Source: a virus (taxonomy: Duplodnaviria > Heunggongvirae > Uroviricota > Caudoviricetes). From it: 5,182 nucleotides of DNA. Numbering within the stretch: position 1 is the first letter of the stretch; each line of letters starts with the position of its first letter. Positions 1,473-2,297 of the stretch are shown here, in pieces. The DNA lies in IMG/VR virus record IMGVR_UViG_2534681941_000045. The stretch is one strand, 5' to 3'. A program made the position numbers and the translations under genes. The notes under the pieces are model-generated. The model did not search any database. It saw only the letters and a list, made by a program, of their open reading frames with translations, and was not told the origin of the DNA.

Positions 1473-2297
1473 ATGCTGAGAAATGCAGTATTGAATTTAT
1501 CAATTTTTCACCAGCTTCTGGTCTTTCTGGCTGTCATGCGCAAAACATATGGCTTTAATAAAAAACTGGATTGGGTTAGCAACGAGCAACTTTCCGAATT
1601 AACCGGGATATTGCCGCACAAGTGTTCTGCTGCAAAAAGTGTTCTGGTAAAGCGTGGGATTTTTATTCAGAGCGGGCGGAATACCGGCATTAATAATGTG
1701 GTCAGTGAATGGTCAACATTACCCGAATCAGGTAAGAAAAATAAAGTTTACCTGAAAGAGGTAAATTTACCTGAATCAGGTAAAAAAAGTTTACCCAAAT
1801 CAGGTAAAGGCGTTTACCCGAATCAGGTAAACACAAAAGACAAACTAACAAAAGACAATATAAAACCTTTTTCGTCCGAGAATTCTGGCGAATCCTCTGA
1901 CCAACCAGAAAACGATCTTCCTGTGGTGAAACCGGATGCTGCAATTCAGAGCGGCAGCAAGTGGGGGACAGCAGAAGACCTGACCGCCGCAGAGTGGATG
2001 TTTGACATGGTGAAGACCATCGCGCCATCAGCCAGAAAACCGAATTTTGCAGGGTGGGCTAACGATATCCGCCTGATGCGTGAACGTGACGGACGTAACC
2101 ACCGCGACATGTGCGTGCTGTTCCGCTGGGCATGCCAGGACAACTTCTGGTCCGGTAACGTGCTAAGTCCGGCCAAACTCCGCGACAAGTGGACCCAGCT
2201 CGAAATCAACCGTAACAAGCAACAGGCAGGCATGATAGCCAGCAAACCAAAACTCGACCTGACAAACACTGACTGGATTTACGGGGTGGATTTATGA
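1473..2297 (+). CDS. O: Lambdoid replication initiator protein O; divergent N-terminal iteron-binding domain, lambda-like C-terminal (P-interacting) domain; possibly 5'-truncated
   Basis: 274-aa ORF. LLVFLAVMRKTYGFNK..SNEQLSELTGILP parallels lambda O LLAILRKTYGWNKP..DSQLSEITKLP. The C-terminal third (SGSKWGTAEDLTAAEWMFDMV...LDLTNTDWIYGVDL) is near-identical to my recollection of lambda O. The stop overlaps the P start (ATGA at 2294-2297). The first 12 or so residues lack O homology and the upstream Shine-Dalgarno is weak, so the true start is uncertain. Confidence 0.85.
   Translation: MLRNAVLNLSIFHQLLVFLAVMRKTYGFNKKLDWVSNEQLSELTGILPHKCSAAKSVLVKRGIFIQSGRNTGINNVVSEWSTLPESGKKNKVYLKEVNLPESGKKSLPKSGKGVYPNQVNTKDKLTKDNIKPFSSENSGESSDQPENDLPVVKPDAAIQSGSKWGTAEDLTAAEWMFDMVKTIAPSARKPNFAGWANDIRLMRERDGRNHRDMCVLFRWACQDNFWSGNVLSPAKLRDKWTQLEINRNKQQAGMIASKPKLDLTNTDWIYGVDL
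1719..1830. repeat. Iteron array of an ori-lambda-type replication origin: five copies of a 17-bp dyad-symmetric repeat, consensus TTACC(C/T)(G/A)AATCAGGTAA
   Basis: Copies at 1719-1735 (ttacccgaatcaggtaa), 1748-1764 (ttacctgaaagaggtaa, degenerate), 1767-1783 (ttacctgaatcaggtaa, perfect palindrome about a central A), 1791-1807 (ttacccaaatcaggtaa) and 1814-1830 (ttacccgaatcaggtaa). They lie inside the O gene in the linker, where they encode the repeated peptide LPESGK/LPKSGK, as the ori-lambda iterons lie inside lambda O. Confidence 0.8.
1831..1870. other. A-rich tract immediately downstream of the iterons; candidate DNA-unwinding element of the origin
   Basis: acacaaaagacaaactaacaaaagacaatataaaaccttt is strongly A-rich on the plus strand and directly follows the last iteron, the same order (iterons then A/T-rich region) as in ori lambda. 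Confidence 0.55.

Follow-up and report, generated by a model that had tools for sequence, protein, structure and literature searches.

The window analyzed here, the whole stretch of 5,182 nucleotides, belongs to a defective prophage: many Escherichia coli O157:H7 chromosomes match its 5182 bases at 100%, with icd directly adjoining. On these chromosomes PGAP annotates, in order, an integrase, an excisionase, a 'replication protein, incomplete, missing N-terminus', replication protein P, ren, emrE, and a recombinase pseudogene broken by an IS3-family IS1203 element. The open reading frames (ORFs) of the window agree with this gene order, and the features that concern us are collected in Table 1.

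Table 1. Features of the window, with positions counted from its first nucleotide
Feature	Positions	Strand	Basis or remark
Prophage integrase	1-1143	-	ORF; PGAP 'site-specific integrase'; icd lies immediately outside the window
Excisionase	1133-1369	-	Pfam Exc (PF07825), E=3.7e-5; PGAP 'excisionase'
Remnant of the early-left arm	1370-1509		Flanked by xis and the DUF4222 gene in intact relatives; extends to the deletion junction
Terminator-like hairpin with T-run	1463-1501	+	Overlaps the fortuitous ATG at 1473
O gene, 5'-truncated	1509-2297	+	Alignments to Lambda_4C10 O and 434 O; PGAP; Pfam; breakpoint arithmetic
Iteron 1	1719-1735		TTACCCGAATCAGGTAA; extra upstream copy, without counterpart among lambda ITN1-4
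Iteron 2	1748-1764		TTACCTGAAAGAGGTAA; 2 mismatches, conserved variant center; positional match of lambda ITN1
Iteron 3	1767-1783		TTACCTGAATCAGGTAA; perfect palindrome around the central base; positional match of ITN2
Iteron 4	1791-1807		TTACCCAAATCAGGTAA; positional match of ITN3
Iteron 5	1814-1830		TTACCCGAATCAGGTAA; positional match of ITN4
A+T-rich tract, presumed unwinding element	1831-1870	+	40 bp; starts with ACACAAAAGACA
Lambda-like part of O: linker and C-terminal domain (interacts with P)	1831-2297	+	Right-hand mosaic block
P, lambda-type DnaB helicase loader, reading frame intact	2294-2995	+	Pfam Phage_lambda_P; identity to 434 P
ren homolog (context)	2992-3294	+	PGAP 'protein ren'; Ren at the same position in Lambda_4C10

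Some features of the surrounding DNA are worth recording in their own right. The multidrug efflux pump gene emrE (SMR family; 3362-3694) lies just after ren and is found at the same place in the temperate phage Lambda_4C10, and thus it travels as a cargo gene in lambdoid phages of this group. Beyond it, a ybcK-like serine recombinase is divided between two ORFs that overlap in different frames (3939-4448 and 4403-4969), pointing to a frameshift, perhaps in the A-run at 4410-4414. The same gene is cut by the IS3-family element IS1203/IS629, which has its left end at about 5006-5008 and covers the window from about 5006 to 5182; strains without the IS match the window only as far as 5007. On the left, the hairpin at 1463-1501 comprises 16 pairs, is A+T-rich and is followed by a T-run. 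It sits between xis and the deletion junction described below; in intact relatives its place is within the 140 nt that separate xis from the DUF4222 gene, and on the opposite strand it may serve as a terminator of the leftward operon.

The element of main interest lies within ORF 1473-2297, which contains both a repeat array (1719-1830) and the A-rich tract that follows it. An earlier note on this DNA had proposed an ori-lambda-type origin here, with five copies of a 17-bp dyad-symmetric repeat and an A-rich tract inside the O reading frame, and the coordinates of this arrangement are confirmed. The sequence TTACCYRAATCAGGTAA occurs without mismatch at 1719, 1767, 1791, and 1814 and with two mismatches at 1748; dinucleotide shuffles lead one to expect 0.02 matches by chance. 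The distances from start to start are 29, 19, 24, and 23 bp. Each of the five repeats is dyad-symmetric and, when extended to 19 bp, has the form TTTACC-N7-GGTAAA; the 19-mer at 1766-1784 is self-complementary at 18 of its 19 positions, the central base being the sole exception. The tract itself is 75% A+T (25% G+C), its top strand having 24 A and 6 T. A search of the window against Rfam gave no match. Separately, an iteron-like sequence with four mismatches, ATACCTGAACCAGTAAA, lies within P at 2876-2892, 1062 bp past iteron 5. Since P is conserved, all loci with a lambda-type P have it, and as a candidate sixth iteron we rejected it as probably a chance match, 0.24 such sites being expected per strand.

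In its architecture this segment closely follows the origin of phage lambda. Origins of the ori-lambda type have at least three to four dyad-symmetric iterons of ~18-19 bp between the N- and C-domains of O, and 1719-1830 is such an array. Their canonical phasing of ~20, 24, and 23 bp recurs in iterons 2-5, at 19, 24, and 23 bp, and the ~40-bp, strand-asymmetric A+T-rich tract after the last iteron recurs at 1831-1870. The segment of O encoded by the iterons also aligns exactly with the annotated rep_origin of phage 434, which contains four gpO sites, and with the origin in gene 18 of P22. In phages lambda and 434, as here, the iterons are dyad-symmetric, ~18-19 bp long, and inside O at the boundary of its two domains, with a spacing of 20/24/23, and ACACAAAAGACA at the start of the A+T-rich tract is common to the window, lambda/434, P22, and Klebsiella phages. 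Thus, position within O, the 19/24/23 geometry, the ACACAAAAGACA motif, the Phage_rep_O and Phage_lambda_P matches, and a mosaic boundary that falls at the end of the iterons together identify a lambda-type origin, and the iteron geometry is the strongest point in its favor.

The specificity of this origin, by contrast, is not that of lambda. The lambda class (rep-lambda) is characterized by ATCCCTCAAAACGAGGGA iterons, of the form ATCCCTC-N4-GAGGGA, and by an N-domain close to lambda's, whereas the window has TTACCYRAATCAGGTAA iterons and an N-domain identical to that of lambda at 56 of 115 positions; the impression recorded in the note that the repeats are unlike those of lambda was therefore correct. 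The number of iterons also differs, lambda and 434 having four (ITN1-4) and the window five. Protein alignments attribute the difference to iteron 1, which corresponds to a 10-codon insertion relative to lambda O. Two further features of ori-lambda are lacking in the window: its O does not have a complete N-terminal origin-binding domain, and the upstream rightward promoter (pR) is missing, the cI-cro-ydaT region having been deleted along with the 5' end of O.

Nearer relatives of the iterons are found outside lambda. The annotated rep_origin in P22 gene 18 has related half-sites, TTTACCAGATCGGTAAA and TTCACCAAATCGGTAAA, a CACAAAAGACA tract, and 20/24/23 spacing, and its DNA is 78.8% identical to the window over 96 nt; among the classical phages compared, the gp18 N-domain is the closest to that of the window. 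P22 differs in that its four repeats are less regular, the C-terminus of gp18 is unrelated, and the partner protein is the DnaB-like helicase gp12 rather than P. Temperate phages of Klebsiella, such as ST11-VIM1phi8.2, have five iterons of the same consensus at identical 29/19/24/23 spacing, with variant centers also in the two upstream iterons. Unlike the window, they encode an O-like initiator with an unrelated C-terminal domain, and the downstream partner is a DnaC-like AAA ATPase rather than P. The specificity class of these iterons is thus not lambda's but is related to that of P22 gene 18, and, as far as sequence comparison goes, the nearest classical relatives are P22 gene 18 for the iterons and N-domain and lambda for the C-domain and P.

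The origins of Stx phages (933W, P27) offer a parallel for the additional iteron, as they too have extra iterons upstream of the canonical four and a lengthened O, although their six iterons are of the lambda type and bound by lambda O and so differ from the window in specificity class. On P27 plasmids the extra iterons are weakly bound yet required (PMC7466680). Known in the Stx phages as iterons 1' and 1'', these extra copies offer an analogy for the possible behavior of iteron 1 and perhaps of iteron 2 with its variant center.

The O protein is a mosaic whose boundary coincides with the end of the last iteron. Compared with O of 434/lambda, it is identical at 49% of positions in the N-domain, at 7 of 29 in the iteron-coded segment, and at 136 of 141 (96%) in the C-terminal part. 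The balance is reversed for P22 gp18 (67/114, or 59%, then 10/31 and 16/92) and for O of the Klebsiella phage (95/115, or 83%, then 26/39 and 20/114). Megablast matches to lambda-type O genes (434, SfI, VT1-Sakai, and similar) begin at window positions 1821-1831 and are 94-96% identical. P, which adjoins O, is identical to P of 434/lambda at 231 of 233 positions (99%) and matches Phage_lambda_P (PF06992) over the full profile (positions 1-162 of 162, E=9.5e-62). The note's description of a chimeric module, with a lambda-like O C-terminal domain and P joined to an N-domain and origin of another lineage, is therefore upheld. The alignment of N-domain and iterons to lambdoid replication modules that the note suggested places their counterparts at the origin positions of 434/lambda and P22. 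No PDB chain matched the window O in a sequence comparison. We also considered ydaU of the Rac prophage in K-12 as a relative and rejected it; it encodes a DUF1376 protein and has no iteron-like sites at up to five mismatches.

This chimeric design is the classical modularity of lambdoid replication genes and points to no unusual event. Recognition of mosaic exchange in the O linker goes back to the late 1970s. Phage 82 in particular (Moore, Denniston and Blattner, 1981, Gene 14:91) reportedly has an O whose N-terminus and repeats are of their own type but whose C-terminus, like P, is compatible with lambda. We take this combination, described in about 1979-1981, to be exactly the mosaic of the window O, and the nin region (ybcN-ninE-rusA-Q) downstream of this O in prophages presumably resembles that of phage 82. 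Our search of the phage collection returned no record of the phage 82 origin. In the searchable literature, exact and partial iteron strings retrieved two unrelated primer matches only, and neither a footprint of such iterons nor a test of their origin function came to light there.

Conservation of the origin across other phages and prophages bears directly on how its irregularities should be read. Full-length relatives of the window O gene are present in 15 sequenced phage genomes, among them Lambda_4C10, 4A7, Perceval, Turner, 1W, 3W, and the PhiR series, all 97-99% identical to the window from 1509 onward. The whole iteron block is at least 99% identical in 12 of these 15 phages and 98.4-99.0% identical in the rest. 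Wherever we looked among phages with this origin (Lambda_4C10), O was full-length, and in the Lambda_4C10 alignment all five iterons, including the supposedly degenerate iteron 2, are identical to those of the window. The O type that accompanies this origin occurs in 2417 of 5426 complete E. coli genomes, about 45%. A scan of IMG/VR for two adjacent perfect iterons found at least 120 loci, 119 of which could be oriented, and among the matches listed the exact 29/19/24/23 layout is seen in 101 of the 119. The idea in the earlier note that iteron number, a degenerate copy, and uneven spacing may indicate duplication or decay of the origin is not supported, because the same architecture is found in complete phages and in Klebsiella phages. 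The spacing of iterons 2-5 is the canonical lambda/P22 geometry (20/24/23) with one iteron added, and the variant iteron 2, besides being identical in complete phages, is 98% conserved over 57 distinct origin sequences. Rare natural variants were also observed among the IMG/VR matches listed, with four, six (an extra iteron 56 bp upstream), seven, or nine iterons, one of them having the 29/19 unit repeated three times; iteron copy number is thus not fixed in this origin class.

The same 57 origin sequences indicate what is being conserved. Iteron columns are 97% conserved, compared with 83% for the spacers and 86% for the upstream coding flank, and the first 30 nt of the A-rich tract are 97% conserved; conservation of iterons 3-5 stems in part from the selection of loci, which required two perfect neighbors, while iterons 1 and 2 lie outside that pattern. 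Third codon positions are 97% conserved inside the iterons and 79% conserved in the flanking coding sequence, and within the repeats, though not in the flank, they are as conserved as first and second positions. The cassette of N-domain and iterons is moreover found with different helicase partners: among the matches listed, it is followed by a lambda-type P at ~77 IMG/VR loci, by a DnaC-like AAA ATPase at ~24, and by a P22 gp12-like helicase at two.

These observations can be set against the view that the repeats are mere tandem duplication of coding sequence, specifying a peptide linker and having no role as DNA sites. The note had remarked that the repeats are translated as a repeated LPESGK linker, which is true of iterons 1, 3, and 4, encoding LP(E/K)SGK, but not of iterons 2 and 5, which are read in another codon phase as VYLKEVN and VYPNQVN. 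The three similar peptides would suit a duplicated linker, as would the detection of the array by Tandem Repeats Finder, with periods of 19, 23, and 43. Yet the difference in codon phase of two of the five repeats makes the DNA the conserved unit, and the behavior of third codon positions speaks against a mere peptide repeat, as does the dyad symmetry of repeats whose position, spacing, and A-rich motif match the origins of 434/lambda and P22. Taken together, the two codon phases and the conservation of third positions and iteron columns argue that constraint acts on DNA, and we regard a purely coding duplication as extremely improbable.

The left-hand end of O can be understood by comparison with a prophage of an ST131 strain that is intact and occupies the same icd site. 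That prophage carries int, xis, the DUF4222 gene, several more genes, exo, bet, gam, and kil, followed by cI, cro, a ydaT (cII-like) gene, O, and P. The window is 99-100% identical to it in 1370-1509; identity is lost after 1509 and resumes at codon 78 of the 339-codon ORF annotated by PGAP as O, and from this break and resumption we deduce a deletion of 6007 bp. At the junction one base (C) is common to both sides, a microhomology of one. The early-left operon, cI, cro, the ydaT/cII-like gene, and the first 47 of 309 codons of O, counted from the lambda-equivalent start (MANTAEIF...), were removed, leaving the junction at codon 48. The deleted form is present in ~313 genomes, mostly O157:H7.

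Could the window nevertheless encode a complete, working chimeric module, in which translation of O starts at 1473 and the product binds the iterons of the same gene and uses the lambda-like P to load DnaB? In favor of this, ORF 1473-2297 is uninterrupted and shares the frame of O, P, which is 99% lambda-like, is intact, and the five iterons and A-rich tract match those of sequenced phages with a full-length O. However, the first 12 codons of this ORF are unrelated sequence to the left of the junction, and the 47 missing codons take with them positions 1-27 of the Phage_rep_O profile, which O matches at positions 28-95 of 95 only (E=3.3e-19); PGAP likewise calls O a pseudogene missing its N-terminus. 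The start of O assumed earlier, at 1473, is thus untenable, its ATG being a fortuitous one inside the terminator-like hairpin. The region of pR, cro, and the cII-like gene is gone, and a consensus scan of 1300-2000, itself indicative only, found no promoter-like site. In addition, a prophage with this gene content in strain Sakai does not appear to be active, as discussed below. We therefore consider a self-sufficient module very unlikely. A clone of 1473-2300 plus P, which had been suggested as a test of origin function, would be expected to fail because the 5' end of O is lost and not because the iterons are wrong.

The prophage has int and xis, no cI or cro, no recombination genes, and a lambda-type loader, and by described gene content only it matches Sp8 of strain Sakai. 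Excision, amplification, and packaging of Sp8 were not seen (PMC2669165). Apart from Sp3, every lambdoid prophage of Sakai was credited with an 'apparently functional' O and P by Asadulghani et al. (2009; PMC2669165); if the prophage is Sp8, the truncation of O disagrees with this score and qualifies it.

Our preferred reading is that 1719-1870 is an origin of ori-lambda architecture and non-lambda specificity that survives in the window as a relic, silent unless O and transcription are supplied in trans, and we hold this with considerable confidence. In lambda, an O dimer binds each iteron, an O-some is formed, the AT-rich DNA is unwound, and the O C-terminus binds P (PMC7466680, PMC6022878). 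By extension from lambda, in an intact phage of the present type winged-helix dimers of the O N-terminal domain would bind the TTTACC-N7-GGTAAA iterons and assemble an O-some, which would bend the DNA and destabilize the adjacent A-rich tract, and the lambda-like C-terminal domain would then recruit P-DnaB. In the window, a 6.0-kb deletion has fused the region adjoining xis to codon 48 of O and taken away the rightward promoter and part of the DNA-binding domain, along with cro and the cII-like gene. With neither a competent initiator nor transcription in cis, the origin would not be fired by its own O, and firing would require an intact O of the same specificity and transcription across the origin, provided by another prophage or an infecting phage. 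The chimeric ORF is open, and its product, if made, might retain residual activity, since only part of the N-domain but all of the P-binding domain would be present. In short, the origin is real, of an ordinary kind, and of a common type, and this copy of it is most likely a dormant relic.

Alternatively, the orphan origin may have been kept for a role in trans, either titrating the O of phages with that specificity and thereby hampering their replication, or being fired by O and P of a co-resident prophage with amplification of the adjoining chromosomal genes emrE and icd. Its iterons are undamaged and P is intact even though the deleted form is spread over ~313 O157-type genomes, but the O157:H7 clone is young, and this alone may account for the unchanged sequence. 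Ectopic ori-lambda iterons carried on plasmids inhibit lambda replication (PMC3349717, PMC4488673); next to those multicopy plasmids, one copy in the chromosome would titrate only weakly. Induced prophages of O157 Sakai are documented to cause 'regional replication' around them (PMC2669165), yet no amplification is reported for the Sakai prophage of this description, and lambda-type origins need transcription through or near the origin, for which the promoter has been deleted in the window. A possible source of O does exist in some O157 strains, which contain a second prophage whose O is full-length and whose iterons are identical. In the O157:H7 strain Z1836, this second prophage lies at 1770742-1785307 of the chromosome and has the same five iterons; near its O we also observed a SIR2-family gene adjoining the repressor and a frameshifted ydaS/cro-like gene. 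Strains 86-24 and FRIK804 lack a second prophage of this kind. Firing or titration in trans is thus conceivable in some O157 strains, but we think it unlikely that the origin has been retained for such a role.

Returning to the dormant relic, its possible effects on other phages deserve mention, although we rate it as decidedly unlikely that an intact O of the same specificity from an induced prophage fires or occupies the relic, with over-replication from icd to emrE, or that the relic acts as a decoy together with a dominant-negative truncated O. If this were true, local over-replication of the icd-emrE region could follow induction of a second prophage, and the relic as a decoy could hold back replication in phages of this O type. 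With its P-binding domain intact, the truncated O could in turn be dominant-negative toward phages that depend on lambda P.

Our findings have their main value for annotation. None of the phage and genome records that we examined carries a rep_origin feature for this element, the annotation being only 'replication protein O', and the class defined here, TTTACC-N7-GGTAAA in five copies, is present in ~45% of complete E. coli genomes and in Klebsiella phages. The kind of element is a textbook one, and its significance in that respect is modest. For this O157 prophage, the truncated O qualifies an earlier in silico view that its replication genes are functional. More broadly, typing lambdoid prophages by iteron class would predict cross-activation and interference among them, for example in enterohemorrhagic E. 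coli (EHEC) with its many prophages.
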